Counted from the first letter of the stretch, positions 11,381-60,927 are shown. The stretch: 64,000 bases of DNA from Candidatus Parcubacteria bacterium (GCA_018669975.1 JABHSK010000007.1:390-64389); one strand, 5' to 3'. The notes: generated by a model from the letters alone, not told the origin. A program made the numbers and translations.

Positions 11381-11764
11381 TGGTGGAGATGAGGGGTATC
11401 ACACCCCTGTCTATCATAAGTCCTAATATACATCTACAAGCTTAGTTAATTTTGTATTTAAACTATTGGCTAAAAAATCAACAAAAAACCAATAATCGAT
11501 TCAGTTTGGGGGTTCGGAATATTCATACTGAAGCTAAATATGTCCTAGCCTGATGAAATGACGTCCCTAATTAACCTCAGGCAAATTAGTTTAGAGACGG
11601 TCGAAGCAAATTTATGCTAAGACTGGTGAAAGTTGTGGGACTTGAAACAAGTCTTTAACTTTCGCAAATGTATTTTTTACACTTATTTTAGTCGATTTTT
11701 AATGAGATCGGGAACTCAACATGCAGTATATTATTTCAAATGACATCGAATAAAAAACATCCCC
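11381..11764 (-). ncRNA. ssrA: tmRNA (ssrA)
   Basis: The 5' end GGGGAUG pairs with the 3' end CAUCUCC-A-CCA, including a G3:U70 wobble. The T-arm is aggggtgtgataccccT. A plausible tag frame GCGAAAGUUAAA...GUCUUAGCAUAA encodes ...PVLA*. It lies immediately downstream of smpB. Confidence 0.7.
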
Positions 11765-11768
11765 ATAA

Positions 11769-12221
11769 TTAAAAACTCTGTATTTTACTTATGATTCTAC
11801 GTTTGATATCTCTTTTCTTGATGTCTTGTCGTTTGTCAAATTTCCTTTTTCCTTTAACCAAGGCTATTTTTACCTTAATTAGTCTGCGCGTAGTATACAC
11901 TGAAAGGGGGATCATTGTCAAGCCCTTTTCATTGGTTTTGCCTTGTAAATAGTGGATTTCCTTCTTGCTTAGGAGTAACTTACGATCCCGTTCTGGATTG
12001 TAGTCTTTAAGACTGGAAAAAGAAGCTTTTTGATACGGAGAAATATACATTTTCTTTATCCAGGCCTGATTATCCTTGATAGAAACAAAGGAACCCTTGA
12101 GGCTTAAATGGCTTTGTTTTACAGATTTGACCTCATGGCCAGTCAATACTAAACCAGCTACAAATTCTTCAACGATTTTGTACTCATAGCCTGCTCGTTT
12201 ATTTTTGGCCAAAATTGACAT
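11769..12221 (-). CDS. smpB: SsrA-binding protein SmpB
   Basis: ...GYEYKIVEEFVAGLVLTGHEVKS... is the SmpB signature. Confidence 0.85.
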   Translation of the reverse strand: MSILAKNKRAGYEYKIVEEFVAGLVLTGHEVKSVKQSHLSLKGSFVSIKDNQAWIKKMYISPYQKASFSSLKDYNPERDRKLLLSKKEIHYLQGKTNEKGLTMIPLSVYTTRRLIKVKIALVKGKRKFDKRQDIKKRDIKRRIISKIQSF

Positions 12222-12640
12222 GACACTTCTAAAATGATATAAAAATTTAATAGCTAATTTGCTATTCGCTTTAAAGATAGCACATTTTAGGGTTCTTTTA
12301 AAGATAAGTAGTCGTTTGGACTATGATAGAAATTAATAACATTATAACCCTGCTAATGATGGGGTTTTTACTTGACATAATGCATGTTTTATGTTTAGAT
12401 AAGACATCTTGAAGATAAAGATTGCTGGTGGTTTGTAAGCTATCTTGTCAGTGCTAAGTTTATTCACGCCCCTCCTTGTGTATAAATTTAGTTTTATAAA
12501 GGATATAGATCTTTATGATTTAAACCCTTTATACTGGCAAATAGCTTAAAGATCGTCAGTATTGCCTCAAATATTATTTTGGGGTTTTTATTTTGGGCAA
12601 TTTGTAATATAATAGAGTTATAAGTATTAATGATTATCCA

Positions 12641-12862
12641 ATGTTAGGATTAATTTTTGTGATCGTTGGAATTTTAATGTTACTGGAAAGAATGGATGTG
12701 ATCTCAGGTGGATTTTGGGAATATCTATGGCCAGTAGTATTAATAGTTTTTGGTTTTAGTCTCATAGACAAACACAAATCAAATTTATGTGGTTGTTTCG
12801 GTGGATCTAAACAACACGGGAAGAAAAAACATGAAGGCCGCAAGATCGTAGACGAGCAATAA
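12641..12862 (+). CDS. Small hypothetical membrane protein
   Basis: A 73-aa ORF with two hydrophobic segments. Confidence 0.3.
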   Translation: MLGLIFVIVGILMLLERMDVISGGFWEYLWPVVLIVFGFSLIDKHKSNLCGCFGGSKQHGKKKHEGRKIVDEQ

Positions 12863-13269
12863 TGTTTAATATAAAAGGGGAAAAGCAAAGTCAGGTGGAA
12901 ATTAAAAAGTCCAAGTTTTTAGGCTTTGTTTTTTGTGTAGATAGTATTGAAGCAGCTAAAAGTCATTTAGATAAACTAAAAAAAGACTATAAGGATGCAC
13001 GGCATGTGGTTTATGCTTATCGCCTAGAAGAGTCTGGTGTGCTACGAGAAAAATTTGACAACAACAAAGAGCCTGGAGGATCAGCTGGTCAGCCATTATT
13101 ATATCTACTTCAGAAAAAAGATATTATTAATTGTTTAATAGTAGTAGTGCGATATTTTGGGGGTACCAAATTAGGAGTGGGTGGATTAATGCGTGCTTAC
13201 ACAAAGGCTGGTCAGGGAACATTGCTAGATAATTTAAAAGAAAATGGAGGAGAGGAGCATAAAAATTGA
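12862..13269 (+). CDS. IMPACT/YigZ family protein (UPF0029 domain)
   Basis: HVVYAYRL...EPGGSAGQPLL...VVVRYFGGTKLGVGGLMRAY. The gene ends in a TGA stop. Confidence 0.7.
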   Translation: MFNIKGEKQSQVEIKKSKFLGFVFCVDSIEAAKSHLDKLKKDYKDARHVVYAYRLEESGVLREKFDNNKEPGGSAGQPLLYLLQKKDIINCLIVVVRYFGGTKLGVGGLMRAYTKAGQGTLLDNLKENGGEEHKN

Positions 13270-13801
13270 CGGACAAGAGTATAGTTATAAATTGCGTCGT
13301 AAAAAACGGGTCAAATATATTCGTTTGATGATTGAGAGTGACGGCTCTTTGGTGGTTAGTGCACCTAAGACTTACCCGGTTTTTTTGATTAAGCAGTTTA
13401 TTTCTAGTCGTTGGGATTGGGTGGTTGTTAATTTGGCCAAAATGAAGAGTAATCCTAGTATTTTGCATGTGCAGCATTCACCAAGTCAGATTAAGAAATA
13501 TAAAGAAATAACCAGAGAATTAACGCAGCGACGTTTAAAATATTTTAATCAGTACTATCAGTTGTCTTATCGGCGTATTTCTATCCGTAATCAGAAAACT
13601 AGATGGGGTAGCTGTTCATCAGATAATAATTTGAACTTTAATTATCGTTTGTGTCTGCTACCGTCAGAAATCGCTGATTATATTATTGTTCATGAGCTCT
13701 GTCATTTGGCAGAAATGAATCATTCTGTCAAATTTTGGCGGGTGGTTGAAAAGACAATTCCTGACTATAAATTTTTAGAAAAGAGATTAAAGAAAATTTA
13801 G
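13244..13801 (+). CDS. M48/YgjP-like (DUF45) metal-dependent hydrolase
   Basis: ...RWGSCSSDNNLNFNYRL...DYIIVHELCHLAEMNHSVKFW (HExxH). Confidence 0.7.
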   Translation: MEERSIKIDGQEYSYKLRRKKRVKYIRLMIESDGSLVVSAPKTYPVFLIKQFISSRWDWVVVNLAKMKSNPSILHVQHSPSQIKKYKEITRELTQRRLKYFNQYYQLSYRRISIRNQKTRWGSCSSDNNLNFNYRLCLLPSEIADYIIVHELCHLAEMNHSVKFWRVVEKTIPDYKFLEKRLKKI

Positions 13802-47854: not shown

Positions 47855-48145
47855 ATGACTATCGGCAAGGTGACTCATGTTTTTACGAACAAGCGCTGCG
47901 TAGCTATTCGTATCAAAGAGGGTCAGCTAAATCAGGGCGATTTATTGAAGTTCACCAAAGGGGACGCAAGTACTGGTATGCCCGGTGTACACGACAGTCT
48001 GCATAAGGCTGGTTCGATTGAGATTGACAACGAGTCAGTTGTATCAGTTGAGGTCGGACAGGAGTGTGCGGTGCATATTGGCAGCGGTGAGTTGCCACCT
48101 AACAACTGTGACGTTATGGTGGTGATGATTCCGGAGCGCTGTTGA
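47855..48145 (+). CDS. Hypothetical small protein (GC-rich, beta-barrel-like)
   Basis: A strong RBS aaggagg and an upstream promoter. No motif recognised. Confidence 0.4.
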   Translation: MTIGKVTHVFTNKRCVAIRIKEGQLNQGDLLKFTKGDASTGMPGVHDSLHKAGSIEIDNESVVSVEVGQECAVHIGSGELPPNNCDVMVVMIPERC

Positions 48146-48192: not shown

Positions 48193-48293
48193 GGGCAGGT
48201 AGTTTAACTTATTCCCAGGGCCCGGGAAGACCAAGTTAAAGCACCGACTGACCAGGTCGGAGATTGGGAGTTCGAATCTCTCTCTGCCCACCA
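48193..48293 (+). tRNA. tRNA-like gene (101 nt) with a ~25-nt extension of the D region; identity unclear
   Basis: Acceptor gggcagg/tctgccc-a-CCA, T-arm gggag-ttcgaat-ctctc and anticodon-like arm ccgac-tgaccag-gtcgg (G at position 33). The D region is a 41-nt extended hairpin (tttaactt...aagttaaa). Confidence 0.4.
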
Positions 48294-48306
48294 TTTTTCC
48301 CAGGCA

Positions 48307-48381
48307 AGGGGTGTAGCTCAGCAGGATAGAGCGTCTCGTTTCGGCGAGAGGTCGAAGGTTCGATTCCTTCCACCCCTGCCA
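48307..48381 (+). tRNA. tRNA-Arg (anticodon most likely UCG)
   Basis: Acceptor aggggtg/cacccct-g-CCA, D-arm gctcagcaggatagagc and T-arm gaagg-ttcgatt-ccttc. As read, the anticodon stem tctcg/cgaga encloses a 6-nt loop tttcgg. Confidence 0.6.
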
Positions 48382-48412
48382 ATAGTTCTTTATTATATTC
48401 ATCTCAGATGGA

Positions 48413-48487
48413 GTCCACGTACCTCAGGGGTAGAGGGCTTGTGTGTTAAGCAAGTTGTCACTGGTTCAAATCCAGTCGTGGACTCCA
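48413..48487 (+). tRNA. tRNA-Asn (GTT)
   Basis: Acceptor gtccacg/cgtggac-t-CCA, anticodon stem cttgt/gcaag with loop gtGTTaa, and T-arm actgg-ttcaaat-ccagt. Confidence 0.8.
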
Positions 48488-48493
48488 TAAGGA

Positions 48494-48597
48494 GCGGGCA
48501 TAGCTCAGCTGGCAGAGCATCTTTGGGACTTGGTAGTACCGCAGGGTAACTACCACGAAAAAGACGGTCGGGAGTTCGAGTCTCTCTGCCCGCTCCA
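48494..48597 (+). tRNA. tRNA-like gene (104 nt) with a ~28-nt insertion in the anticodon loop; identity unclear
   Basis: Canonical acceptor gcgggca/tgcccgc-t-CCA, D-arm gctcagctggcagagc and T-arm gggag-ttcgagt-ctctc. The anticodon stem tcttt/aaaga encloses 35 nt, including the hairpin tggtagt..actacca. Confidence 0.4.
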
Positions 48598-48718
48598 CTT
48601 ATTACCCCGTCGACATTGTTCGGCGGGTCTTCTTTTTAGTAATATTGACATAAAAGATCTTTTGTATTATGGTATAGTATGTTTTATGGTAATGTAAATT
48701 ATTTTTTTAGATATTTAT

Positions 48719-49717
48719 ATGAAAAAACTAGATCAAGTATACGATCACGTAACATCTTTAGGCATAGGATTAACCTCATTATGTAACCTTAAGTGCTCCC
48801 ATTGCTACTCAAAAAATTTAAGTAAGAAGACCCTAACTCTAGCAGAAATGGAAGGGATTTTTGAGTATTTTCCTAATTTACAGAAAGTAAATTTTGGCAC
48901 TGGCGAGAGCATACTAAATCCTGATTTTTTAAAAATTGTTGATTTTTTTCATGCCAAAAAGATAAAAATTGCAGTTACATCAAATGGTACTACTATTGCT
49001 CAGATGTCTGATGAGCATCTAAAGAAACTGGATGAGGTAGATATTTCTCTAGATTTTGCCAACGCTAAAGAACATGATGAGTGGAGGGGTTATCCTGGTT
49101 TGTTTGATAGAGCCATTGAGTCTATAGAGAGGTGTAAAAAATTAGGCATTGAAATATCCATTGCTACAGTATTGATGAATTCTAACTATAAAGTTTTTGG
49201 AGAGTTTAAAAAGATATTAGATAAATATGATATTCATCTGAGAGTAAACTTATGTAAACCAGTAGATACTGATGAATTTCAGATGAGCTATGAAGAGTTT
49301 TGGGAATCAATGAAAATAATTGCTGATAATTTCACTTTAGTAGCTAGCTCAGAGCCTGTGTTAGCTATTGTTACTGATATTAATGATCATTTGTGTGGAT
49401 CTCCTTGCGGTGATTCAGTTAGGCTACATCCAGATTTTAGTGTTAGTCCTTGTGTTTATGTGGATGGTAATAAGATTTCAACAGAGAAGTTTATAGAAAT
49501 GAAAAAACAAATCCCGAAATTTTGTCAGGATTGTGATTTTGTTGATAAATGCCGAGGTGGCTGTATGAGTAGAAGAATTTTTAATGATAATGTTGATAAG
49601 CCAGATGAGTATTGTCCAATTTATCGTGGAGATAAAATTCCAGAGATAAATTTCAAAACATTAGTAGGAAAAGAGTTTATACATAGTAATTATTTGTGTA
49701 CATTTATTTTAAAATAA
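48719..49717 (+). CDS. Radical SAM / SPASM-domain protein
   Basis: N-terminal CNLKCSHC and a C-terminal cysteine-rich SPASM region (CGSPCGDS...CQDCDFVDKCRGGC...YCP). A promoter TTGACA-17-TATGGT lies upstream. Confidence 0.7.
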   Translation: MKKLDQVYDHVTSLGIGLTSLCNLKCSHCYSKNLSKKTLTLAEMEGIFEYFPNLQKVNFGTGESILNPDFLKIVDFFHAKKIKIAVTSNGTTIAQMSDEHLKKLDEVDISLDFANAKEHDEWRGYPGLFDRAIESIERCKKLGIEISIATVLMNSNYKVFGEFKKILDKYDIHLRVNLCKPVDTDEFQMSYEEFWESMKIIADNFTLVASSEPVLAIVTDINDHLCGSPCGDSVRLHPDFSVSPCVYVDGNKISTEKFIEMKKQIPKFCQDCDFVDKCRGGCMSRRIFNDNVDKPDEYCPIYRGDKIPEINFKTLVGKEFIHSNYLCTFILK

Positions 49718-49747
49718 TAGTGTAAGAAAAAACCACAAGACATGTAA

Positions 49748-50863
49748 ATGAAAGGGGTAGCGATGTTGCTGGATGTCAGTAAGTACGCTGACCAAATTGA
49801 GCGTCGGCGAGCAAGGCGAAGCCTAGCTGCCCAACTTAGCCCCAATGCAAATGTACCGATATGTTTTTATTTCAACGGTGCATTTTATTGTGAGCTACTG
49901 GGCGTTGATGTCGAGGAATATTATCGGGAACCAGAATTACAGGTTGAGGTTCAGCTTAAGGGCTGGCAGTGGCAAATGGAGCATTTGCGTGCAGATTCTT
50001 CCACCTGTGATTGGATTGGTTTTGAGACGGGCCCGATTGGCGAAGCGGTTGCCTTTGGTACACCAATATTCACCAGTCAAAATAGTCCGCCTGTCAGTCA
50101 GTCGATTGAAAATGATCTATCCGAGATTCTCAAATTGCAAGTTATTCCACCGGATAGAAATAGACTGTGGCAGAGCTTACAGGCTAAGGCAGAACGTTTT
50201 GCTGCTCGAGCCAGTAAGTTGGGAACCAACATTCCCGTTGCTAAGTTTAGGCCACCGGCCATTCATTTGCCTTTGACGGCAACATGTTTATTGGCTGATG
50301 CTACTCAAGTAATGCTAGCAGTGGGGGGTCGAACTCCTGAGTTAGATAAGGTACTGTGGCATATGTGTCATGCTTTAATTGAGTGGAATGCTTATTTTTA
50401 TGGCAATGGTGAAATGTGGTTGTGTGACGATTATATCTGTTTCATTTCCGAGGCAGATTTTCGGGCATGCTTAACTAAGCATTATCAGTTTTTAAACACT
50501 GTCTATTCTGATAGGCGCTTGTGTTTTCATGCTGATGGTCCTTTAGATCAGCACTTTGCTCATTTGCTGGATTTTGTATCAGCTAAAAAGGTAGATATCG
50601 GCGGCTTCAGCTCTTTAGTAGAAGAACGACGTCATCTACAGGGTAGAGTGTTGTTTTCCGGAGGCTTGAATAACAAGGATTTCGACAAACACGGTTTGCA
50701 TCAAACGACTATCAAGAAGGCTCTTCAAGCAATTGAAGATTCTAAAGCCGAAGGAGGCTTTGAACTTTCTATTGGTGGTCAGTGCTACGTGGGTGTTAAT
50801 CCTGACAGCCTTTGTCAGTTGGTAGAAATAGTCCGATCGGAGTATAATTACGCTATAGAGTGA
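49748..50863 (+). CDS. Hypothetical protein (~48% GC); possible URO-D/MtaA-like TIM-barrel. Alternative start at 49763.
   Basis: ORF with an internal RBS-like aaagggg before the second ATG. Weak pattern resemblance only. Confidence 0.35.
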   Translation: MKGVAMLLDVSKYADQIERRRARRSLAAQLSPNANVPICFYFNGAFYCELLGVDVEEYYREPELQVEVQLKGWQWQMEHLRADSSTCDWIGFETGPIGEAVAFGTPIFTSQNSPPVSQSIENDLSEILKLQVIPPDRNRLWQSLQAKAERFAARASKLGTNIPVAKFRPPAIHLPLTATCLLADATQVMLAVGGRTPELDKVLWHMCHALIEWNAYFYGNGEMWLCDDYICFISEADFRACLTKHYQFLNTVYSDRRLCFHADGPLDQHFAHLLDFVSAKKVDIGGFSSLVEERRHLQGRVLFSGGLNNKDFDKHGLHQTTIKKALQAIEDSKAEGGFELSIGGQCYVGVNPDSLCQLVEIVRSEYNYAIE

Positions 50864-50924
50864 CATTGAGCCGCAAAGCGGCTCAATGTCACGTATTTAT
50901 TCAGACTACTTTTAAAAAAAATAT

Positions 50925-51593
50925 ATGAATAAAAACAAAACAAACATTAATTGGGATAGTCTTTGGGAAAAAAGAAAAGATTTAGATTGGTGGCGTACAC
51001 CAGCTAAAGACTTTGTTAAAATTCTAGAGTCACTAGATTTTTCTGGTCAGGAAAAGTTTTATGATTTGGGAGCAGGCATCGGCAGGCACACTGTTTTGCT
51101 GGCTAAGGCTGGCTTTGATGTTTATGCTTCTGATGATTCACAAGCAGCCATTGATCAAATAGAGGAGTGGTTAGCCAAAGAAAAAGTATCAGCCAAGACT
51201 TATTTATGTGATATGGCTGAAGGGCCATTTGAAAAAGATTTTTTTGATTTTGTAGTATCTTATAACGTAATCTATCATGGGCAGCAGGAAAGAATGCAGC
51301 AGGCGATAGATCATGTCTATGATATTTTGAAGCCGAACGGATATTTTTATTTTACTTGTCCAAGTATTAAAGATGGACGTTGTGGTTCTGGCACTGAAGT
51401 TGGGTATCAGGCTTGGCGTTGTGAAAATGCTCTAGACAAAGGAGAAGTGCATTGTTTTACGACCAGGGAAGATTTAGATAAATATTTAGAAAAATTTGAA
51501 ATAGTATCTGTTAATTTGAATGAAGGTAGTTTTGTCCACGAAGGCAAGGATAGATTTTATTCAGACTGGCAGGGGTTAGTAAAGAAAAAATAA
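50925..51593 (+). CDS. Class I SAM-dependent methyltransferase
   Basis: Motif I YDLGAGIGRHTVLLAKAGFDVYASD. Confidence 0.65.
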   Translation: MNKNKTNINWDSLWEKRKDLDWWRTPAKDFVKILESLDFSGQEKFYDLGAGIGRHTVLLAKAGFDVYASDDSQAAIDQIEEWLAKEKVSAKTYLCDMAEGPFEKDFFDFVVSYNVIYHGQQERMQQAIDHVYDILKPNGYFYFTCPSIKDGRCGSGTEVGYQAWRCENALDKGEVHCFTTREDLDKYLEKFEIVSVNLNEGSFVHEGKDRFYSDWQGLVKKK

Positions 51594-52474
51594 AAGATTT
51601 AGACAAAAACATTTCCGTAGTTTTAAGACTAACCAAGTATTGCAACTTAAGTTGTGAGCATTGTTATTATGCTGCTTCACCAGACAATAAGCATAGTATG
51701 TCAGAGTATAAGGTAAAACAAGCTTTGGAAGATTTGGCATCTTTAGAAAAAGAAGGATTTAAAATAAACGAAATCAGGTTGACTGGCGGTGAAGTGACAG
51801 CCTTGCCGTATATAGCAGCTCTAACTAAAGATATTAAAACTAGGTGGCCAAAAGCTACTTTGCAGTTGGAGAGTAATGGTATTAAGTTGATGGCCAATGA
51901 AGAATCACGGCAGATGCTTGAGTGGATTGACAGGCTACACATTAGCATTGACACTTGGCATGACAATGTAGACATTGAGGGGAATTCAAAGATTTTAGAT
52001 TTTTTATTGAAGCGTAGAAAAAAATATAAATTTGGAGTATTGGTGCACTGGGCTACCAATCAAGACGATGAAGAATTAATGCAGAAGTTTTTAACTAAGT
52101 ATGAGCCGCAACAAATTGATTTTCATATCAGTGAGGTGTCACCAGCTGGGCGGGGAGGAAATTTAAATGAAAGGTTTTTAGCTAAACATCATTCACAACG
52201 TACAGTTTGTAGTTTTGCCAATTATATACTTCTAGATGTTGATGAACACTGGTATAGCTGCAGGGTAATGGCTGATTATAGTCGCATTGGTAAAATTGCT
52301 TGTAAAGATTTTGTAAATAAGATAAATAAAGCCAAAAAAATAAGGCAGGAGCTAGCTATTGACAAAATTGGCATTCCGTTATTTAATAGAGAACTTGATA
52401 AGGCTAAGGTTTGTAAGCAAATCAAGCAAAACAAAGGAATAATATGTGATCTTTGTAAAAAGGTCAATTTATAA
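51590..52474 (+). CDS. Radical SAM protein; 5' end uncertain because the CxxxCxxC motif lies upstream of the first ATG at 51698
   Basis: The open frame from 51554 encodes ...NISVVLRLTKYCNLSCEHCYY before the first ATG. Candidate starts are ATA at 51590 (overlapping the upstream TAA), ATT at 51611, or a -1 frameshift from the upstream methyltransferase gene. Confidence 0.5.
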   Translation: MKDLDKNISVVLRLTKYCNLSCEHCYYAASPDNKHSMSEYKVKQALEDLASLEKEGFKINEIRLTGGEVTALPYIAALTKDIKTRWPKATLQLESNGIKLMANEESRQMLEWIDRLHISIDTWHDNVDIEGNSKILDFLLKRRKKYKFGVLVHWATNQDDEELMQKFLTKYEPQQIDFHISEVSPAGRGGNLNERFLAKHHSQRTVCSFANYILLDVDEHWYSCRVMADYSRIGKIACKDFVNKINKAKKIRQELAIDKIGIPLFNRELDKAKVCKQIKQNKGIICDLCKKVNL

Positions 52475-52517
52475 TAGATAAAGCACCTTAAAATTCTAGC
52501 AGCGAGGGGAGTGTACC

Positions 52518-53117
52518 GTGAGTGGTAAATTTGTGGCTCTTGTTGGCCCTTCAGGGGTAGGCAAGACTACCATCATCACTGCTCTGATGAGCTCTTCAAC
52601 TGATTTTGTCAGGATGTTGCCGCATACAAGTCGGCCACCTCGACCCTATGAAGTTGAAGGAGAAGATTATTGGTTTGTGTCTCGCGATGAGATACAAGCG
52701 ATGTTGGCAGCCGATCCTAGGCTCAAAGAAACTTTGGTTGAGTTTGACGGACACCAGTTCGTTATTGACTACAATCGGATTGAGCAAATGTTGGCTGACG
52801 GTAAAGTAATATTGATGGACCTCTATATTAACTGGGTTCAGCAGTTTAAAGAAAGGTATGACCAGCAGATGGCTGCCGTACTTTTGCTGCCGGATGACCT
52901 GGATGTATTGGTCGATCAGCTAAGTCGCTCGAGGAAACATGATCCCGAATTTGTGGATAAACGCATGGCCCAGACTGCTCGGGAGATGAACATCTTCCAA
53001 AACAAGATGAAGCCTTATTTTAATAAGGTAATTGTCTTGCCGCGGTCTTTGGATATGGCAGTGGCCCAGGTTCGGAGAACTATTACCCTATTAACAGATG
53101 GGGTTGGGGGGCGCTAG
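52518..53117 (+). CDS. gmk: Guanylate kinase (GTG start)
   Basis: ALVGPSGVGKTT P-loop and HTSRPPRPYEVEGEDYWFVSRDE. About 50% GC. Confidence 0.7.
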   Translation: MSGKFVALVGPSGVGKTTIITALMSSSTDFVRMLPHTSRPPRPYEVEGEDYWFVSRDEIQAMLAADPRLKETLVEFDGHQFVIDYNRIEQMLADGKVILMDLYINWVQQFKERYDQQMAAVLLLPDDLDVLVDQLSRSRKHDPEFVDKRMAQTAREMNIFQNKMKPYFNKVIVLPRSLDMAVAQVRRTITLLTDGVGGR

Positions 53118-53150
53118 CTACGGCTTCGGCCTCCCCCCTTTTTATTTTTT
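53105..53150 (+). terminator. Rho-independent terminator (G/C-run stem plus T-run)
   Basis: ggggttggggggcg...ggcctcccccc followed by tttttatttttttt. Confidence 0.5.
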
Positions 53151-53157
53151 TAAAATT

Positions 53158-54672
53158 ATGAATATAAATAACAAAAAATTAAAAAATTCAGATTACTGTT
53201 CTATTTTTAGTAATAAAGATGGTCAGTATGCTGTTTATCATTCACTGACTTGTGATATTGTATATGGTGGCGAACTATTGAATAAATTGTTTGCACATTT
53301 TTCAGACTATAATACTTATCAAGAGCTTGATAAGGAGGATGAAAAAACCAAACAGTTATTAACTACCTTGTACCAAGGTGGTTTTTTAGTTGCTAATGAT
53401 AAGCAAGATCAGAAATTATTGGATAGCATGCAGAAACAAGTTAAAGCCAAACAATTTATCAAGACATTGTATTTGAGTATTACCTATAAATGTAATTTAC
53501 GTTGTAAATATTGTATCAGTAATAATGACGTTGCTTTAGATGGAGACAAAAAACTTTCTTTTATGGACATGGATAAAGATACTGCTAAACAGGTAGTTGA
53601 TTATTATTTGCAGCATGTGGTAGATGAGGGTGATAAGGAGGTTGTTCTCTATGGCGGTGAACCATTAGTTAATTATGAAGTTTTGAAATTCATGGTTGAA
53701 TATATAGAGGAAAAAGAATCAGCTAAAATAAAAAAGAATAAAGATTATAAGAGGAGTCGTTTTATTTTGTGTACCAACGGCACTTTAATTAATAAGGAAA
53801 AAGCAGCCTATCTAAAAGAGCACAGGATTTATCCAGCAGTTACTTTTGATGGAGATCAACTGGCTCATGATAATGTTCGGGTTTATGCCAACGGGCAAGG
53901 AACATTTGAGGATGTAGTCAAAGCTTATAGAAATTTACAGGAGCTAGATTTTCCAATTGGTGTGACATTGACTTTAGGTAGTCACAATGTAGACAAGGTG
54001 GCAGATTTTGTAGAGTTGTTTGCTAAAAAGCTACAACCTCATACTATGGCTACTAATATTATGATTGATTACGATGATGGTGGTAATCCCTATGTCTGTG
54101 AAGGTAATACTCTAGCAGATAATTTAATTAAAGCTTTTGAAGTTGCTAGAAAACATGGCATGTATTTGGTTAAGTATGTTATGGATAATCGTATTAAACC
54201 TTTTGTAGAAAAACAGCCAAGACTTAAAGGATGCACGGGCACTGGATCAAGGATTATGGTTTTGCCGGATGGTTCTCTGTCAGCTTGTATGGCTTATGCT
54301 AATAATTCATCAGTCAAAGTAAAAGATAATCCAAAGGTAGAGGAATTTTTGCCAACGGGTATAAAAACCTATTCACCATTTCTCAAACAACAATGTCGCT
54401 ATTGTCCAGCTATTTCTTGCTGCGGTGGCGGTTGCCCTAAGAGCGCGGAGGTTAAACATGGTACCTTATTCTCATTGGACGACGATTACTGTATTCAGAG
54501 TAAGAGATTTTTAGAATGGTTAATTTGGGATTTATACAATTTTATTGATCAGAAGCAACTGGTCAAAGATGGTTTTGTAATTCCCAGCGATGAAGAACGC
54601 CATAAGATATATGGAAAAATAGAAGTGCGTCGCAGTCCATTAGATTTTCAATATACACCTAACGCTAATTAA
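53158..54672 (+). CDS. Radical SAM / SPASM-domain protein with a ~115-aa N-terminal extension (possible peptide-recognition domain)
   Basis: ITYKCNLRCKYC and the SPASM region CTGTGSRIM...SAC...CRYCPAISCCGGGCP. The start is placed after the terminator, at MNINNKK. Confidence 0.7.
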   Translation: MNINNKKLKNSDYCSIFSNKDGQYAVYHSLTCDIVYGGELLNKLFAHFSDYNTYQELDKEDEKTKQLLTTLYQGGFLVANDKQDQKLLDSMQKQVKAKQFIKTLYLSITYKCNLRCKYCISNNDVALDGDKKLSFMDMDKDTAKQVVDYYLQHVVDEGDKEVVLYGGEPLVNYEVLKFMVEYIEEKESAKIKKNKDYKRSRFILCTNGTLINKEKAAYLKEHRIYPAVTFDGDQLAHDNVRVYANGQGTFEDVVKAYRNLQELDFPIGVTLTLGSHNVDKVADFVELFAKKLQPHTMATNIMIDYDDGGNPYVCEGNTLADNLIKAFEVARKHGMYLVKYVMDNRIKPFVEKQPRLKGCTGTGSRIMVLPDGSLSACMAYANNSSVKVKDNPKVEEFLPTGIKTYSPFLKQQCRYCPAISCCGGGCPKSAEVKHGTLFSLDDDYCIQSKRFLEWLIWDLYNFIDQKQLVKDGFVIPSDEERHKIYGKIEVRRSPLDFQYTPNAN

Positions 54673-54673
54673 T

Positions 54674-56089
54674 ATGGGAGAATTGAATCCACAAATTAAA
54701 GATCAATTATCAAAGTATGTACGAGTATTTGATTTTGGTGAACATCTATGTTTACTGAATGGCTTGTCTTTAGATAAAGTTTTCATTAAAGCGGATGCAG
54801 ATAATCAGGAGACCAAAGATGTTTTGCAAAAGTATAATTTGCTTAAAGATTTTGATGTAAAGGCTGAGAAATTTGTGAGTGGTTGTCAGAGTAAGTTTGA
54901 TCCTAGTTTTAGGCAATTGTATCTGGTGGTGACGGAAGCTTGTAATTTTGATTGTAAATATTGTCGGCAAGTAACACACGACGTCAAGGGTAATCGTAGT
55001 ATGACTCGAGACGAGGCTAGATTGATTGTTGATAATTTTTTTAATTTGGCGGAGGACAAACCACGTGGCGTAGTTTTTTATGGTGGTGAGCCATTGGTGA
55101 ATAAAGAGGTTATGTTGGATGCAGTTAAATATATTCGGCAGAAAGAAAGTAAATTAAAATTGGATAGGCCGATTGATATGACTATCATTACCAATGGTAC
55201 TTTAGTAGATCATGATAGCGCACAGGTACTCAAGGATAATGATGTTTATATTATTATGTCTATTGATGGTCGCGCTCAAGAGCATGACAAGTTTAGAGTT
55301 TATGCAAATGGTAAAGGAACCTTTGACGATGTTATCAAGGGTTATAAAATATACCAGCAAGCTGGTTGTAGAGTAGGTATATCTTGTACAATTGGTTCAC
55401 ATAATTACGACAATCTAGAGGACATTTTTGATTATTTTGCTAATGATTTGCAACCAATTAATGTTGGTATCAACCTACCACATGACGATCACGACAATCC
55501 ATTAAATGATGATTTAGATTTTGGAAAATTCTGTCAACGTATGTTCAAAATTTTTGAACAGTCAACAGATAACAATTTATATATAGAGCATATTATCAGA
55601 AAGTTGAAACTTTTATTTAGACACGAGATTAAAATTAATGACTGTGCAGCCTGTGGTGGTAGATTGGTTGCTTTACCTGGGCAAAGATATGGAGTTTGTG
55701 AAGGAGCGATTGGTATGGATGAGTTTTTCTTTACAGACATAAAGAGGGTTGCTGAGATGTCCGCAGAATGGTATGGAACTTCTCCGCTTTTTGATGACCA
55801 TTGTAGTAATTGTGCTGCTGTCGGAGTCTGTGGTGGTGGTTGTCCTTTTGATGGATATTTAGAAGCCAAGCAGGTTGGACACCGTGATAGTCGTCGTTGT
55901 CTATTTATGAATAAGATTGTCGAGTGGGGATTAGAAAATTTTTATAAAATACACAAAAATAAATTGCAAGGCAAGAAATACTATATTCCGAATTTGAGTG
56001 ATCAACATGATTTTTTGAAAGAGATTAAAGCTATTAATGATAGTTTACCCTTGCGTAGTTCTGCTAGTTTTAGTAATACCAAATTATGA
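54674..56089 (+). CDS. Radical SAM / SPASM-domain protein, paralog of 53158..54672
   Basis: VTEACNFDCKYC and the SPASM region CAACGGRLVALPGQRYGVC...CSNCAAVGVCGGGCP. The two genes share VYANG(K/Q)GTF(D/E)DV. Confidence 0.7.
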   Translation: MGELNPQIKDQLSKYVRVFDFGEHLCLLNGLSLDKVFIKADADNQETKDVLQKYNLLKDFDVKAEKFVSGCQSKFDPSFRQLYLVVTEACNFDCKYCRQVTHDVKGNRSMTRDEARLIVDNFFNLAEDKPRGVVFYGGEPLVNKEVMLDAVKYIRQKESKLKLDRPIDMTIITNGTLVDHDSAQVLKDNDVYIIMSIDGRAQEHDKFRVYANGKGTFDDVIKGYKIYQQAGCRVGISCTIGSHNYDNLEDIFDYFANDLQPINVGINLPHDDHDNPLNDDLDFGKFCQRMFKIFEQSTDNNLYIEHIIRKLKLLFRHEIKINDCAACGGRLVALPGQRYGVCEGAIGMDEFFFTDIKRVAEMSAEWYGTSPLFDDHCSNCAAVGVCGGGCPFDGYLEAKQVGHRDSRRCLFMNKIVEWGLENFYKIHKNKLQGKKYYIPNLSDQHDFLKEIKAINDSLPLRSSASFSNTKL

Positions 56090-57558
56090 AAGTCGTAATA
56101 CTAGATATTCCAACTACAGAGATTTTTTCTACACCTGAATTTAACAGGTTGTCTTCAGAGGTCAAAAAATATCGTCTACATGATCAAAAAGTTAAATTGG
56201 AAGATAAATACAATATTCGTTTTTCACCACCGCATACTTACAACCGTGGACTTTTATTCGTGGCAGCGGTACTAGAAGAAAAGGGTGTTGAGGTTGATTA
56301 TTTTAATGGAGACTATGACAAAGATTTTTGGCAGAAATGTCAGGATAAAATAAAGGAAGCAGATGTATTGATGGCTTCAGTAAAAACCAATAATTATCCA
56401 GTTATTTTAGAGTATTTTGTTCAAGCCAGAGAAATAAAACCAGGGATTACAACTATGATTGGTGGTTCACATGCTACGGCTATGCCTGAACAATGTTTAG
56501 AAAACGATTTGATAGATTTTGTAGTGATAGGTGAAGGTGAGATTACTTTGGCAGAATGGCTAGATGTTTATCAATCTACTGGTGATGATTATAGTCAGAT
56601 TTTAGGCTTGGGTTACAAACAAGGCAAAGAAGTTAAAGTGAACTCTTTACGTCCTTTGATAGAGGCTCTAGATGCTTTGCCGATGCCTGCTTATCATTTG
56701 TTGCCAGGTGGCCTTAAAGAATATCATCCTTATATTGATACTTCCCGTGGTTGTATGTATCAATGTGGTTTTTGTAGCGGGCCAAACTTTTGGCGCCGTA
56801 AAATGCGCACCAGATCATTTGCTAATTTTTATAAAGAATTAGAATTGATTAAATCATTGATGGGGGATTATAACTTTATTCATATTTCAGATCCAATGCT
56901 GGGAGTGACTCCACAGCAGTTGGAAATATTGAACCAGTTAAAAGAAAAAGAAATTGATTTATATTTTTCTTGTGATGTTAAAGCTAATTATATTCGTCCA
57001 GATTTAATTCAATTGATGAAAGACAGCGGAATTATTATTTTTTCCATTGGCATTGAAACCCTAAATGATAAAGCGCTGACTTTACTAAAAAAGAATTGTA
57101 CAGCTGAACTAGAAATTGAAGCTTGTCGAGCCATTAAAAAGTTTGATGGTATTTATGTAAAATCATATTGGATTGTTGGTTTGCCAGGCGAGGATAAGGA
57201 ATCACTGCAATATAACAACGAGCAAATTTATAATTTATTGAAGACAGAAGCAGTTGATCAAGTTTGTAATCATATTTTAGTTCCATATCCAGGTACAGAG
57301 TTTTTTCATGATCCAAAACAGTTTGGTATCAATATTATGCATGATGATTGGATACACTATGAGGGCAGATCATATCCTTTAATTTATAAACTAGACAATC
57401 TGTCTGGTGATGAAATATACAAATATTTTTTAGAAGCTCACGAATATGAGCTCAAATATTATAAGGAAGCATATCCAAGTATAGCTTTTACTGATGAACC
57501 TGGTAAGCAAGATCAAGATAACATGAGTTTTGGTAAGTACAAAGGAAGGCTACTTTAA
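56086..57558 (+). CDS. B12-binding domain radical SAM protein (class B-like)
   Basis: N-terminal cobalamin-binding-like domain followed by TSRGCMYQCGFCSGP (C-x3-C-x2-C). Confidence 0.7.
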   Translation: MKVVILDIPTTEIFSTPEFNRLSSEVKKYRLHDQKVKLEDKYNIRFSPPHTYNRGLLFVAAVLEEKGVEVDYFNGDYDKDFWQKCQDKIKEADVLMASVKTNNYPVILEYFVQAREIKPGITTMIGGSHATAMPEQCLENDLIDFVVIGEGEITLAEWLDVYQSTGDDYSQILGLGYKQGKEVKVNSLRPLIEALDALPMPAYHLLPGGLKEYHPYIDTSRGCMYQCGFCSGPNFWRRKMRTRSFANFYKELELIKSLMGDYNFIHISDPMLGVTPQQLEILNQLKEKEIDLYFSCDVKANYIRPDLIQLMKDSGIIIFSIGIETLNDKALTLLKKNCTAELEIEACRAIKKFDGIYVKSYWIVGLPGEDKESLQYNNEQIYNLLKTEAVDQVCNHILVPYPGTEFFHDPKQFGINIMHDDWIHYEGRSYPLIYKLDNLSGDEIYKYFLEAHEYELKYYKEAYPSIAFTDEPGKQDQDNMSFGKYKGRLL

Positions 57559-57664
57559 AAGCTTGTTTATTGACAAAATTATATAAATATATAAGATTGG
57601 AGTATGAATGCAGAATTTTACTACTGCCAATAAATGAACCTTGTTAATAGAATAGGAGAACACA

Positions 57665-58927
57665 ATGAAACCGTTCTACGGTCTTGATTTTGGAACTAGC
57701 AATCTGTCGATTGCTATCCAGAATGGGGAAGGCACACAAGTCTTGCCTATTGATGGTCAAAATAAAACGATGCCGACGGTATTATATTTTGGACCAAGTG
57801 GAGGGGAACCAATTGTTGGTCAGAGTGCTATGTTGCGCTATGTTGCCGATGGGATGAGTGGACGCTTTATGCAGTCACTCAAGTCAGTTTTACCTAATTC
57901 CGGGTTTACTGGCACCTATCTAGATAGGCTTGGCTTTGCCGATATTGAAGACTTGATTGCTTATATCCTTAGGGATGTTAGGCAGCGAGCCAACGAACAA
58001 GTCGGCATGGACATTGATCGGGCTGTTTTTGGGCGGCCAGCAGAATTTTCCAAGGATCCGGAAGAAGAAACTATGGCCATCGAGCGCCTGATGAAGGCTG
58101 CCAAGCTGGCAGGTTTTAATGAAGTTGAACTTCAGTTGGAGCCAATTGCGGCCGCTTTTCACTACGAAATGTCTTTAGATAGAGAAGAGGTTGTATTGGT
58201 TGCAGACCTGGGTGGAGGTACCACTGACTTTACGGTCACCAGGTTGTCTCCAAAAAGAAGGAGAAAACGAGATCGCTCCAAGGACATCTTGTCTACTGGT
58301 GGTGTCTACATCGGTGGCGATAAGTTTGACTCAGCTGTAATGGAGATGAAATTGCTTAAGTACTTTGGTCAAGATGCCGAGTACAACAGTTGGGAAAAAT
58401 GGATGCGTTTTCCATCGTACCTTGTTCGTGGCATTATGCAATGGCAAGAAATTGCCTTCCTCAAAGATACTCGCACTATGCGTGTGCTCAATGATCTAGT
58501 ACGTTATGCTAGGACAAAAGAAGACAAAGAGTGTGCTATACGCTTACTTACTCTAATAGATGAGAACCTGGGCTTTTCCTTGTTTCAAACTATTGAGACC
58601 GCTAAGCGTGGTTTGTCTACTTATGATAGTGACTGTATTTACTTTAATCAGTCAGCTATTAAGATTGTCGAGCCAATCTTTCGAAATGAGTTTGATGAAA
58701 TCATTGCCTTTGCACTAGAGGAGTACGAACAATGCGTAGATCAGGTTTTGGCTGATGCCGGAGTTTCTAATGGTAGAATTGACTCGGTCTTTCTAACAGG
58801 AGGATCTTCACTGGTGCCTTGCGTCCAATCGGCTTTTGCCAATCGTTTTGGTGAAGACAAATTGAGACGTGGCGACACCTTCATTAGTGTTGCTTCAGGA
58901 CTGGCTTCTAGCCAGTTGCTTTCCTAA
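57665..58927 (+). CDS. Hsp70-family ATPase, nucleotide-binding domain only (YegD-like)
   Basis: Phosphate-1 GLDFGTSN, phosphate-2 ADLGGGTTDFTV and a C-terminal ...FLTGGSS.VP. About 52% GC. Confidence 0.65.
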   Translation: MKPFYGLDFGTSNLSIAIQNGEGTQVLPIDGQNKTMPTVLYFGPSGGEPIVGQSAMLRYVADGMSGRFMQSLKSVLPNSGFTGTYLDRLGFADIEDLIAYILRDVRQRANEQVGMDIDRAVFGRPAEFSKDPEEETMAIERLMKAAKLAGFNEVELQLEPIAAAFHYEMSLDREEVVLVADLGGGTTDFTVTRLSPKRRRKRDRSKDILSTGGVYIGGDKFDSAVMEMKLLKYFGQDAEYNSWEKWMRFPSYLVRGIMQWQEIAFLKDTRTMRVLNDLVRYARTKEDKECAIRLLTLIDENLGFSLFQTIETAKRGLSTYDSDCIYFNQSAIKIVEPIFRNEFDEIIAFALEEYEQCVDQVLADAGVSNGRIDSVFLTGGSSLVPCVQSAFANRFGEDKLRRGDTFISVASGLASSQLLS

Positions 58928-59016: not shown

Positions 59017-59340
59017 ATGCAAGAATTTAAATTTAATAAAAAAAGTGACGATTTATTTAAGATTATTCTAAAGCTTAAAAACATTAAAGAAGCTGAGGCT
59101 TTTTTTCGTGATTTGTGTACTATTTCTGAATTGCAGGAAATGGTTGATCGCTGGAGAATAGTTAGATTATTGTCAGAAAATAAATCATATCGTGATATTG
59201 CCAAAGAACTTAAAACTAGTACTACCACAGTATCTAGGGTAGCTTCTTGGTTAAAAAATGGAAAAGGTGGTTATTCATTAGCACTCAAGCGCTCAGGTAG
59301 TCATCATAGTAACTCTTCCTCTGGGAAAGGGTTGCGTTGA
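59017..59340 (+). CDS. TrpR-like YerC/YecD family protein
   Basis: ...DRWRIVRLLSENKSYRDIAKELKTSTTTVSRVASWLKNG is the YerC/TrpR-related HTH signature. Confidence 0.65.
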   Translation: MQEFKFNKKSDDLFKIILKLKNIKEAEAFFRDLCTISELQEMVDRWRIVRLLSENKSYRDIAKELKTSTTTVSRVASWLKNGKGGYSLALKRSGSHHSNSSSGKGLR

Positions 59341-59438
59341 TATTTTGTGATATAAACTTAGCCCCTTCCCGTCGGGAAGGGGCTTTTTGTTTTGTGCAAA
59401 AGGCTGACGCTCTTTTCATTGTAATAGGAGGTAATAAC

Positions 59439-60368
59439 ATGCAACGAGTCGTGGATTATTTTGTGAATAGGGATTTTAGTAATATTGTCCCTGGAGCATC
59501 AGTTGGTGCCGAAATCGAGACCTCTTTGGTAGAAAGACAAGGCGGTCGTCCGATTTCTCTGCAGACTTCTCAGATGATTATGCAACAACTGATTGATAGT
59601 GGGCAGTGGAATCTTCAGGAGAGTAAGGGAGGTTTGATTTCTGCCCTGATGGACAAGCAGGGTAATCGGATTTGTTATGAGTTGGGTCGGCAAAATTTTG
59701 AGGTCGTCACAGTACCCAGTCAGGTAGATTCCTTGTTGGTAAAGACCAGGGGCTTGCTTGGGCAATTGTATTTGGCGGCTGAAAAATATGGGGCTGAACC
59801 ATTCTTTGGGCCAGTTTTACACACTGAGGAGAATCTGCTGATTATTCCTGATGCGCGTGATGCTACCTGGTTGCAAGTGGATGGTAAGCGGGCACTGGAA
59901 TTTTTGTCCCGTATTTCAGCAGTGCAATTTACGATAGCCGTAGAAAAGAATAGGGCTATCAGCTGCCTTAATCAACTGGCGGGTAAGCTGGATATCTTCC
60001 TGGATTATTATCCACAGCATGTTAATTGGTTGGCATACATCGCTGGCTCCAATGCAGGTTATGCTCACAGTCGTTATGGTGGGCCACTGTATTTTGAGAG
60101 TATTGCCGATTATGCTAGGCAATTGACTGGTCATGGTGTGATTACCGAAAGTGTTAGGCCTTCACTCCGTGAGCCGTGCACTGGTAATTTGCGACCACTC
60201 AGTGAGGTGGTTGATCTGGATATTCCCATGTACCTGCGGTCTGTCTGGTGGCACTTTCGGCTCAAGGTTTATGGTGACTGCCTCTGTATTGAAGTTAGAC
60301 CGATTGGTCGTCGTAATGATGACCAGCTGGAAGAGCAGCTTGATTTAGTGATGAGTTGCTTTAGCTGA
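59439..60368 (+). CDS. Putative carboxylate-amine ligase (glutamate-cysteine-ligase family 2-like); low confidence
   Basis: N-terminal ...GASVGAEIETSLVER resembles the GCS2/YbdK start. RBS aggagg. About 50% GC. Confidence 0.3.
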   Translation: MQRVVDYFVNRDFSNIVPGASVGAEIETSLVERQGGRPISLQTSQMIMQQLIDSGQWNLQESKGGLISALMDKQGNRICYELGRQNFEVVTVPSQVDSLLVKTRGLLGQLYLAAEKYGAEPFFGPVLHTEENLLIIPDARDATWLQVDGKRALEFLSRISAVQFTIAVEKNRAISCLNQLAGKLDIFLDYYPQHVNWLAYIAGSNAGYAHSRYGGPLYFESIADYARQLTGHGVITESVRPSLREPCTGNLRPLSEVVDLDIPMYLRSVWWHFRLKVYGDCLCIEVRPIGRRNDDQLEEQLDLVMSCFS

Positions 60369-60453
60369 CATTTATGGGAGGAAGAAATTCCTCCCTTTTA
60401 CCCGGTAATTTATAAAATAGATTATCGAGTAGAAGATTATTAATAATAAAATT

Positions 60454-60927
60454 ATGTCTATTTATGTATTTGGCTACGGATCATTAATGAATGCTGGTAG
60501 CTTGCAGCGAACTTTGCCTGGAAAAAAAATTATGGCTAAAGCTAGCTTGTTGGGCTATCGACGTAAAATTAATGCACCAGTAGATGGTTATCTCTATCTA
60601 AATATTGTACCAAAAAAGAAATGGAAAGTAGGTGGAGTAATAATTAAAATATCGGAGCAGGATTTAGAATTTTTAAAACAAAGAGAAATTGGTTATAATT
60701 GCTTAGATGTCAGTGATAGGATGACACAGAAATTTGATGGCCGGGTATTTACTTTTGTCGCTCCAAATAAAGAATATCCAAAATTTAAAATTCCCTGGAG
60801 CTATATCAATACCTGTTTATCTACTGTGTCATACGATAAGCGTGATTTGTGGCTAGACGAAACTATAATAGTTAATGATATTGAGTACGATATTGATCAG
60901 CCGGTCTATTCTTTAGTGGCTAAATAA
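60454..60927 (+). CDS. Gamma-glutamyl cyclotransferase-like (AIG2/GGCT fold) protein
   Basis: N-terminal YVFGYGSLM motif. Confidence 0.55.
   Translation: MSIYVFGYGSLMNAGSLQRTLPGKKIMAKASLLGYRRKINAPVDGYLYLNIVPKKKWKVGGVIIKISEQDLEFLKQREIGYNCLDVSDRMTQKFDGRVFTFVAPNKEYPKFKIPWSYINTCLSTVSYDKRDLWLDETIIVNDIEYDIDQPVYSLVAK

Follow-up and report, generated by a model that had tools for sequence, protein, structure and literature searches.

Relationship to Described Radical SAM Systems

The described systems closest to the gene cluster reported here are the peptide-modifying enzymes CteB and TigE, the mycofactocin and PQQ pathways, the pairing of viperins with CMPK2-type kinases, the oxetanocin enzymes, and orphan cassettes of the Haft type. 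The cluster lies in a Candidatus Parcubacteria genome (GCA_018669975.1), within a 64,000-nucleotide stretch of contig JABHSK010000007.1 (390-64389) that is referred to below as the window and from whose first letter positions are counted unless another locus is named. It comprises eight genes in the same direction, A to H, all on the plus strand (48719-57558), with gene I as an associated ninth member. Five of the eight encoded proteins are radical S-adenosylmethionine (rSAM) enzymes (A, D, F, G, and H), three of them (A, F, and G) with a full SPASM motif and one (H) with a B12-binding domain. We consider the cluster to be best explained as an accessory, patchily distributed, multistep rSAM tailoring pathway with a core of A, F plus G, and H, and tentatively and marginally favor a phosphorylated nucleotide-type small molecule over a gene-encoded peptide as its substrate.

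CteB and TigE resemble F, and by homology G, in having the recognition element for peptides that are made by the ribosome and modified after translation (RiPPs; RiPP recognition element, RRE) followed by rSAM and SPASM domains, with a Cx3Cx2C motif and the full seven-cysteine SPASM motif. Identity to F is 16-21%, and F falls far below the family cutoffs (134 bits against 425 for SCIFF). Unlike CteB and TigE, F has an additional conserved C-terminal tail and an MDNRVKPFVE motif, has no adjacent precursor, and occurs in every case together with A and in most cases with a B12 rSAM enzyme and a kinase as well.

The mycofactocin and PQQ pathways recall A in that MftC and PqqE are rSAM/SPASM enzymes without an RRE of their own, and they share with the cassette the use of methyltransferases as tailoring enzymes. 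MftC is the best NCBIfam model for A, which nevertheless reaches only 97.5 bits against a cutoff of 265, and the cassette differs from both pathways in having no MftA/B/D/E/F, no PqqA/B/C/D, and no precursor. We found no mft-like partner genes (MftA/B/D/E/F) with A and no PqqD or PqqB/C domains, PqqE is absent from the 25 best models shown for A, F, and G, and a separate PqqD-family gene was called in none of the loci.

The pairing of viperins or prokaryotic viperins (pVips) with CMPK2-type enzymes provides a parallel in which an rSAM enzyme is accompanied by a nucleoside monophosphate kinase and the distribution is accessory and patchy, as here. Unlike viperins, A has a SPASM domain, and the cassette adds three or four further rSAM enzymes. 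In oxetanocin biosynthesis, the B12 rSAM enzyme OxsB acts on nucleotide phosphates together with the HD phosphohydrolase OxsA. In one of the loci described below (L090), an HD protein stands with the cassette. The likeness is confined to the logic of the pathway; H has no detectable match to OxsB at E ≤ 0.001 in a PDB search. The Haft-type cassettes (GeoRSP and the "ScfB-related orphan maturase" NF040492) combine SPASM enzymes and kinases with no obvious precursor, as does the present one. A aligns across the whole of the GeoRSP model but reaches 73.8 bits where the cutoff is 400, and for F on NF040492 the score is 116 with a cutoff of 855.

Protein families were assigned by Pfam and NCBIfam profile searches, with the curated cutoffs of NCBIfam applied. 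Together with the motifs, these searches bear out an initial annotation of the window, made from the sequence, in its count of five rSAM enzymes, three of SPASM type, two of them tandem paralogs, and one B12-binding, and in the domain types given to the class I methyltransferase (C), the 371-aa TIM-barrel-like protein (B), and the guanylate kinase (E). No protein of the block reaches the cutoff of any NCBIfam model. The rSAM enzymes fall below those of MoaA, anSME, MftC, SCIFF, PapB, FibroRumin, viperin, and BchE, and thus outside the housekeeping and characterized subfamilies. With scores below cutoffs and partner genes missing, we likewise agree that the cluster matches no named RiPP or cofactor pathway (PQQ, mycofactocin, SCIFF/sactipeptide, ranthipeptide). 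The combination is undescribed in the curated models and the literature searched. Its parts come from known superfamilies; what is new is the precursor-less joining of three SPASM rSAM enzymes, a class B rSAM enzyme, and a kinase, usually with a phosphohydrolase, though not in this window.

Conservation of the Cassette and Its Variants

The arrangement A-E-F-G-H together with I recurs in at least four other Patescibacteria (clade 1: L007/L008/L011, L009, L010, and a JGI 3300075153 contig). For the three of these loci represented by DNA, F is 51-66% identical to its window counterpart, G 52-64%, and H 54-61%. The relatives have the cassette next to genes for DnaG/RpoD/UvrD, DnaJ, or HisRS/CTP synthase, in place of the CysRS and tRNA genes that flank it in the window, and this syntenic comparison establishes what the initial annotation had left to be checked, that the cassette is conserved as a unit elsewhere. 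Neither of the two outcomes that the annotation had named as counting against its proposal, membership in housekeeping subfamilies and lack of conservation as a unit, was therefore observed. All four relatives carry an orthologue of I, a recurrent neighbor whose place and orientation vary, and all four have a truncated pyrophosphatase (PPase)-like protein of 115-131 aa, upstream in L009. In three relatives, H is followed by a conserved Cys-rich protein of 168-169 aa, X169 (L007 14430-14939; L009 14413-14919; L010 14414-14917), which matches nothing in Pfam and carries the motif CWN(K/F)CPVLxACxK...C...C(E/C)E. A tblastn search of the window found neither X169 nor PPase-like genes.

More distant loci have other gene orders, given here with identities to the window protein in brackets and "rev" for the opposite strand. 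L090, which adjoins a type IV secretion system (T4SS), has F (41%), H (33%), A (31%), a 273-aa P-loop protein, G (43%), and an HD hydrolase. In L089, a B12 rSAM enzyme is followed by F (37%), an APH-family kinase (rev), a SPASM enzyme, A (36%), and a further SPASM enzyme (rev), whereas L091/L092 have A (54%), a 319-aa protein, an amidohydrolase, a methyltransferase, two F-like genes (F' and F''), a second methyltransferase, and a HAD gene. The order in L171 is Nudix, dTMP kinase (Tmk; 127 bits against a cutoff of 83), amidohydrolase, B12 rSAM enzyme, A (50%), Nudix, and an I-like Hsp70 (rev, 36%); the best models for its amidohydrolase are 5'-deoxyadenosine deaminase (DadD) or guanine deaminase. 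L172 has Tmk, an amidohydrolase likewise of the DadD/guanine deaminase type, A (48%), and Nudix. L174 comprises a SPASM enzyme, A (41%), two rSAM enzymes, a Tmk-like protein (72 bits against 83), a C-like methyltransferase, NTP_transf_5, and a nitroreductase, in a genome that also carries genes for alginate lyase, a LacI-type regulator, and a DctM transporter.

Across loci, the cassettes adjoin tRNAs, GIY-YIG genes, a T4SS, or a restriction-modification (R-M) system. The patchy distribution and these variable-region surroundings argue for an accessory role. A phage or plasmid origin was considered and set aside, no close relatives having been found. A hint of a mobile or variable region comes from L007, where two small GIY-YIG endonuclease-like open reading frames (ORFs) lie upstream of the cassette (97-354 and 7822-8094), the latter at a distance of 250 nt from A.

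Gene A as the Hub

Gene A (48719-49717, plus strand) encodes a 332-aa protein that matches Radical_SAM (E=2e-17) and has a full seven-cysteine SPASM motif (CX2CX5CX3C...C) without an RRE. The cassette family is centered on this gene, whose orthologues are 27-67% identical in the clade 1 relatives (64-67% in L007 and L010, 28% in L009) and 31-54% identical in L089, L090, L091/L092, L171, L172, and L174; the family comprises about 109 clusters. A always travels with a kinase (Gmk-like, Tmk, APH, or P-loop), and most variants add a (pyro)phosphohydrolase (PPase-like, Nudix, HAD, or HD) or a purine-type amidohydrolase. These partner kinases and hydrolases come from nonhomologous families. The distant variants keep A with F/G-like or B12 rSAM enzymes, and L171 holds A, a B12 rSAM enzyme, and the I-like Hsp70 but no RRE-bearing enzyme.

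Beyond MftC and GeoRSP, A scores 67.9 bits on MoaA (cutoff 284) and 56.3 on viperin (cutoff 180). PADLOC models of pVips match it at 71 bits; we discount this as similarity at the generic rSAM level, with G and D also matching pVip models. An AlphaFold2 (AF2) model of A has a pLDDT of 94.1, and in a fold search its nearest folds, about equally close, are BlsE, SuiB, SkfB, anSME, and the viperins. Three arginines are invariant in the family (R123, R175, and R235) and two more nearly so (R285/R286), a pattern that would fit an anionic substrate.

Kinase E and Protein I

Gene E (52518-53117, plus strand, 199 aa) encodes a guanylate-kinase-like P-loop kinase that scores 99.3 bits on Gmk (TIGR03263; cutoff 160.45). 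The P-loop and the T-x-R, R, E, Y, and guanine-binding Glu residues are kept, and GNYYG(T/S) is replaced throughout the family by GN(L/H)F(A/V)(V/I). E is divergent at two predicted GMP-contact positions, the contact roles being those that we take over from the yeast and Escherichia coli Gmk structures. By these residues E looks like a dedicated kinase for a GMP-like compound. Its orthologues stand between A and F in L007, L009, L010, L012, and the JGI 3300075153 contig, and between D and F in L173. The guanylate kinase had been noted in the window as embedded in the operon; it is indeed there, but as more than an embedded gene, since nucleotide-type kinases recur as partners in the variants.

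Gene I (57665-58927, plus strand, 420 aa) encodes a YegD-like protein consisting only of an Hsp70 nucleotide-binding domain, with 219 bits on PRK11678 against a cutoff of 331. No function is assigned to YegD-type proteins in the literature searched.

The Maturase-Like Pair F and G and the B12 Enzyme H

F (53158-54672, plus strand, 504 aa) combines an N-terminal RRE-like domain with an rSAM core and a full SPASM region, and G (54674-56089, plus strand, 471 aa) is its rSAM/SPASM paralogue (29% identical, E=7e-60). Although a 524-aa ORF starting at 53098 and overlapping E is open for F, all orthologues start at the Met encoded at 53158, which we therefore regard as the true start, leaving a domain of about 107 aa before the rSAM motif. 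An N-terminal extension of about 115 aa, possibly for peptide recognition, had been proposed for this protein; its length is thus to be corrected, and the suggested role gains from the fold. In the AF2 model, built from 56 sequences (pLDDT 93.9), residues 8-97 form four strands and three helices in the RRE-like order beta-beta-beta(-beta)-alpha-alpha-alpha. Foldseek ranks CteB and TigE at the top, with 466-480 alignment columns that include this domain, and the F-family profile matches CteB (5wgg) over residues 42-458 (E=9e-49) and TigE (8vpo) over residues 4-458. To judge from the predicted model, assignment of the N-terminal domain as a peptide-recognition domain is structurally sound.

Among NCBIfam models, only peptide maturases rank as best for F and G, far from their cutoffs in each case. 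F scores 172 on FibroRumin (TIGR04136; cutoff 400), 154 on PapB (NF047865; 340), 134.1 on SCIFF (TIGR03974), and 99.5 on anSME (TIGR03942; 349); the respective scores of G are 157, 136, 103.5, and 95.9. Invariant in the F family is the motif MDNR(V/I)(K/R)P(F/L)VE, and its members end in a conserved tail, ...R(R/H)K(I/V)YGxIxV...PLDFQYTPN, that is coil in the AF2 model (pLDDT 64-69). The notion that this tail is a fused core peptide is weakened by the homologous conserved tail of G (...LPLRSSAxF), which makes it a structural feature of the family. With the tail included, F amounts to about 13 clusters (90% identity) in a set of 5.8 billion proteins. When 185,579 species representatives were scanned with a pattern as seed, only three F-orthologue loci at ≥58% identity were returned, and a scan of metagenomes with the F profile contributed no more than L091 and L092, the generic rSAM motif having swamped it.

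H (56086-57558, plus strand, 490 aa) has the architecture of a B12-binding (class B) rSAM enzyme (PF02310, E=6e-20; PF04055, E=2e-16; CMYQCGFC motif). It scores 122 on BchE (cutoff 481), reaches no subfamily cutoff, and also matches the RiPP/protein C-methyltransferase models ApyD, rSAM_ocin_1, and QCMT. Its best PDB matches are 9ccb, TokK, and CysS.

Search for a Precursor Peptide

Neither the intergenic gaps nor the complete set of ORFs of at least 20 aa in the block contained a precursor-like small ORF, and a comparison of stop-to-stop frames across six loci showed no conservation of any small ORF lying outside the large genes. In the 64 kb that the window covers of the genome of about 845 kb, and in 11 related loci, we found no Cys-rich or precursor-like ORF with the exception of a FibroRumin precursor in L172. 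Scans of gaps, window, and related loci are thus in accord with the earlier statement that the gaps hold no small precursor ORF. The remaining small-ORF candidates were rejected as antisense or alternative-frame shadows of large genes. A GC-rich 96-aa ORF (orf96, 47855-48145) had been put forward as the only small candidate nearby; this suggestion fails, as the ORF has no family match (a subthreshold resemblance to EF-Tu domain 2 has E=0.11) and has no related small ORF in five related loci. Moreover, no protease or exporter is present in any cassette variant examined. The exception in L172 is an unrelated, apparently complete FibroRumin-type RiPP unit (11619-13656) beside the A/Tmk/Nudix block, with a maturase at 400.8 bits against the cutoff of 400 preceded by a Cys-rich 70-aa ORF ending ...CGTCACKCACRYNDVPGDNPFDK.

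Proposed Pathway and Its Substrate

The neighborhoods of A, with their kinases and phosphohydrolases or deaminases, point to a nucleotide-type phosphorylated small molecule. Further observations were counted on the same side: the cassette is conserved between different flanks; an RRE-bearing enzyme is missing altogether from L171; in E, the P-loop and most GMP-binding residues are retained, with a changed motif and a score below the Gmk cutoff; the arginines of the A family are invariant or nearly so; the variants lack a precursor, a protease, and an exporter; and D-type rSAM enzymes occur fused to an H-like class B rSAM enzyme (P0266; E=5e-8 to H) and to an APH kinase domain (P0270). In such a pathway, E would phosphorylate a GMP-like monophosphate to the di- or triphosphate level, A and H would carry out radical C-H chemistry and B12-dependent methylation or rearrangement on the phosphorylated compound, and F and G would contribute additional radical steps. 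B, C, and D, as a URO-D-like protein, a SAM methyltransferase, and a small rSAM enzyme, may give lineage-specific tailoring in this genome, and in the relatives a PPase-like, Nudix, HAD, or HD hydrolase would remove phosphates. I may serve as an ATP-driven helper.

Several points weigh against a nucleotide-type substrate. In its complete domain layout F, and by homology G, corresponds to the RiPP maturases that a leader peptide guides; its closest relatives in sequence and fold are all peptide-modifying (CteB, TigE, FibroRumin, PapB, QhpD, and anSME), and we know of no RRE-bearing rSAM enzyme that acts on a nonpeptide. A resembles peptide and small-molecule enzymes equally, so that its fold does not separate the two substrate classes. 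The Tmk of L171 and L172 scores above the equivalog cutoff for the housekeeping enzyme and may be the product of the ordinary tmk gene of the cell, and removal of 5'-deoxyadenosine could be all that the amidohydrolase does. RiPP clusters, too, contain APH and HprK-like kinases and NTP_transf_5, the last of these present in L174. Finally, the block of the window itself contains no phosphohydrolase.

The next most probable reading, though a doubtful one, is a system for maturing a RiPP or a protein, with a substrate gene at another place in the genome or a larger protein as the substrate. By means of their RRE-like domains, F and G would recognize a leader, into whose peptide they would introduce cross-links, A would add a further radical modification, and H would C-methylate, with the kinase and phosphohydrolases acting on the peptide or being incidental. 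The match of F to CteB and TigE by profile, AF2 fold, and Foldseek rank speaks for such a system, as do the exclusively peptide-maturase models for F and G, MftC as the best model for A, and the matches of H to C-methyltransferase models; peptide tailoring could also accommodate the APH partner in L089, the P-loop partner in L090, and NTP_transf_5 in L174. All of these model scores are, however, far below their cutoffs. A precursor-like ORF is missing from the cluster and the window and is not conserved among the six related loci, protease and exporter occur in no variant, and clusters of the L171 type have A and a B12 rSAM enzyme without any RRE enzyme. To our knowledge, Gmk-like, Tmk, Nudix, PPase, HAD, and HD partners are without RiPP precedent. 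The initial annotation had proposed a novel peptide- or cofactor-maturation system; the system is conserved and outside known families, as that proposal implied, whereas its RiPP nature is not established, with no precursor, protease, or exporter in the variants.

It is unlikely that two separate units are merely co-located, one nucleotide-directed (A, E, H, PPase/Nudix, and I) and the other an orphan peptide-maturase pair (F and G). L171 and L172 do carry the A unit without F or G, and the unrelated FibroRumin maturase and precursor adjoining the L172 block demonstrate that such juxtaposition happens. Nevertheless, linkage of A with F-like genes is seen in four different arrangements (clade 1, L089, L090, and L091/L092), and in clade 1 F and G stand between E and H with reading frames that overlap or abut.

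Less probable again is that F and G are RiPP-type enzymes recruited into a nucleotide-type pathway, in which their RRE-like domains, having given up the reading of a leader, would dock the conserved, flexible tails of partner enzymes (...PLDFQYTPN of F and ...LPLRSSAxF of G) and so build a multi-rSAM complex. If true, this would mean that ultra-small episymbiotic bacteria make a new class of radical-modified nucleotide or nucleoside, such as an antimetabolite with antiviral or antagonistic action. A housekeeping operon of a reduced genome, with E as gmk, I as a chaperone, the PPase as the cell's pyrophosphatase, and the rSAM enzymes as unrelated maintenance enzymes or as dealing with by-products such as 5'-deoxyadenosine, is very improbable, for although operons of the candidate phyla radiation mix functions, the Tmk of L171 and L172 passes its equivalog cutoff, and no second gmk lies within the 64-kb window, the F family is rare in the pattern-seeded scan, E is below the Gmk cutoff, the PPase-like protein is very short, the cassette moves as a block between different flanks, and its surroundings are typical of variable regions.

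Under the preferred nucleotide-type reading and the peptide reading alike, the cassette is a small, testable target, either for new radical nucleotide chemistry or for a RiPP system with an unconventional substrate. This minimal genome of about 845 kb devotes about 9 kb, or about 1% of its DNA, to the cassette, and this outlay on enzymes that are sensitive to oxygen and hungry for B12 and SAM implies that the accessory product is important. The locus also cautions that architecture alone is insufficient for calling a SPASM-rich cluster a RiPP cluster.

The B-C-D Add-On Module

Genes B, C, and D are a lineage-specific add-on outside the core. The 5.4-kb locus L173 has URO-D, methyltransferase, D, Gmk-like, F, and G genes in this order, and the retained B-C-D order indicates a conserved module in at least two organisms. 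B (49748-50863, plus strand, 371 aa) is a divergent TIM-barrel protein without a Pfam match of its own; all 20 of 20 B homologues match URO-D (PF01208), and a B-family profile finds HemE structures only at E of about 1e-4. From these profile matches, B is predicted to be a member of the URO-D superfamily and not HemE. The gene is GC-richer than its neighbors. A 40%-identical homologue occurs in a different kind of genome (L006) in an unrelated gene context, and two other such homologues carry the NCBI name Planctomycetota/Brocadiia. C (50925-51593, plus strand, 222 aa) is a TehB-like class I SAM methyltransferase that shares 64% identity with its syntenic counterpart in L173 and 31% with a methyltransferase of the L174 cluster.

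D is a small rSAM enzyme of about 300 aa from a rare family (17 representatives at E<1e-10 among 1.84 billion), with a score of 22.8 on MoaA. Its frame is open on the plus strand over 51554-52474, in the -1 frame relative to C, and overlaps the stop codon of C (51591-51593). The annotated ATG is at 51698, whereas the Cx3Cx2C motif (CNLSCEHC) lies upstream in frame at 51641-51664, and the rSAM match reaches E=4e-13 once the upstream in-frame codons are included. The frame contains no ATG, GTG, or TTG between 51554 and 51698; possible starts are ATT at 51554, CTG at 51566, ATA at 51590, and ATT at 51611. Assembly error was rejected as the cause, as independent assemblies of the same strain carry the same sequence. 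Within the shared cluster region, the sole single-nucleotide polymorphism between the window and L001/L002 is G>T at 51574, synonymous in the upstream frame of D and Gly>Val in that of C; as a single data point, it is compatible with translation of the upstream D frame.

The initial annotation described an unusual rSAM enzyme fused or overlapped with an upstream gene. The overlap with C is as described, but fusion is unsupported: the L173 orthologue of D (44% identical) has its own ATG start 5 nt after the methyltransferase gene, and a C-D fusion is thus not the ancestral state. N-terminally extended homologues (P0278 and P0281) show no methyltransferase domain, and we rejected the fusion. It is possible that D has a weak noncanonical start or is in early decay. 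A -1 slip at AAA-AAA-TAA linking C and D is conceivable, though without support.

Transcription and Surroundings of the Block

The gaps inside the block are 30, 61, 43, 1, and 106 nt, and the remaining junctions are overlaps. A terminator-like hairpin (48606-48627) follows the last tRNA and precedes a promoter-like site, TTGACA-17-TATGGT (48645-48673, plus strand), 46 nt upstream of A. This site, initially called perfect, matches at 10 of 12 positions, and sites of such quality are barely enriched in the region (56 against 43.5 ± 7.1 in shuffles); it counts as weak evidence. A second hairpin, with a perfect 15-bp stem and a 3-nt loop, overlaps the stop codon of B (50860-50892, plus strand) and is possibly a terminator or processing site within the block. 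It has no counterpart at the equivalent position in L173. With this strong hairpin between B and C, A-B and C-H may be separate transcripts, so that of the single co-directional operon initially described the common direction stands and the single transcript was overstated.

Upstream of the block, Rfam identifies four tRNA-like genes (48193-48594), of which ARAGORN calls only two. The gene at 48193-48290 has an insertion of about 31 nt in the D-loop region, the one at 48307-48378 a 6-nt anticodon loop ("tRNA-???" in ARAGORN), and the one at 48494-48594 an intron-like insertion of about 28 nt in the anticodon stem-loop. L001, L002, and L004 span the array and are identical to the window there. 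Downstream (59017-60927), a gene for a TrpR-family regulator (107 aa) overlaps that of a GC-rich 343-aa protein without a Pfam match (K343), followed by one for a 157-aa GGACT/ChaC-like protein; none of the three is conserved beside the cassette in relatives. The region 39756-60368 is a gene-by-gene GC mosaic, with GC content at third codon positions of 0.40-0.54 in E, I, B, K343, orf96, nadK, and a Nudix fusion gene and 0.24-0.30 in the rSAM genes, rpsB, tsf, pyrH, gap, and cysS. E and I are GC-richer than the rSAM genes in L007 and L010 as well.

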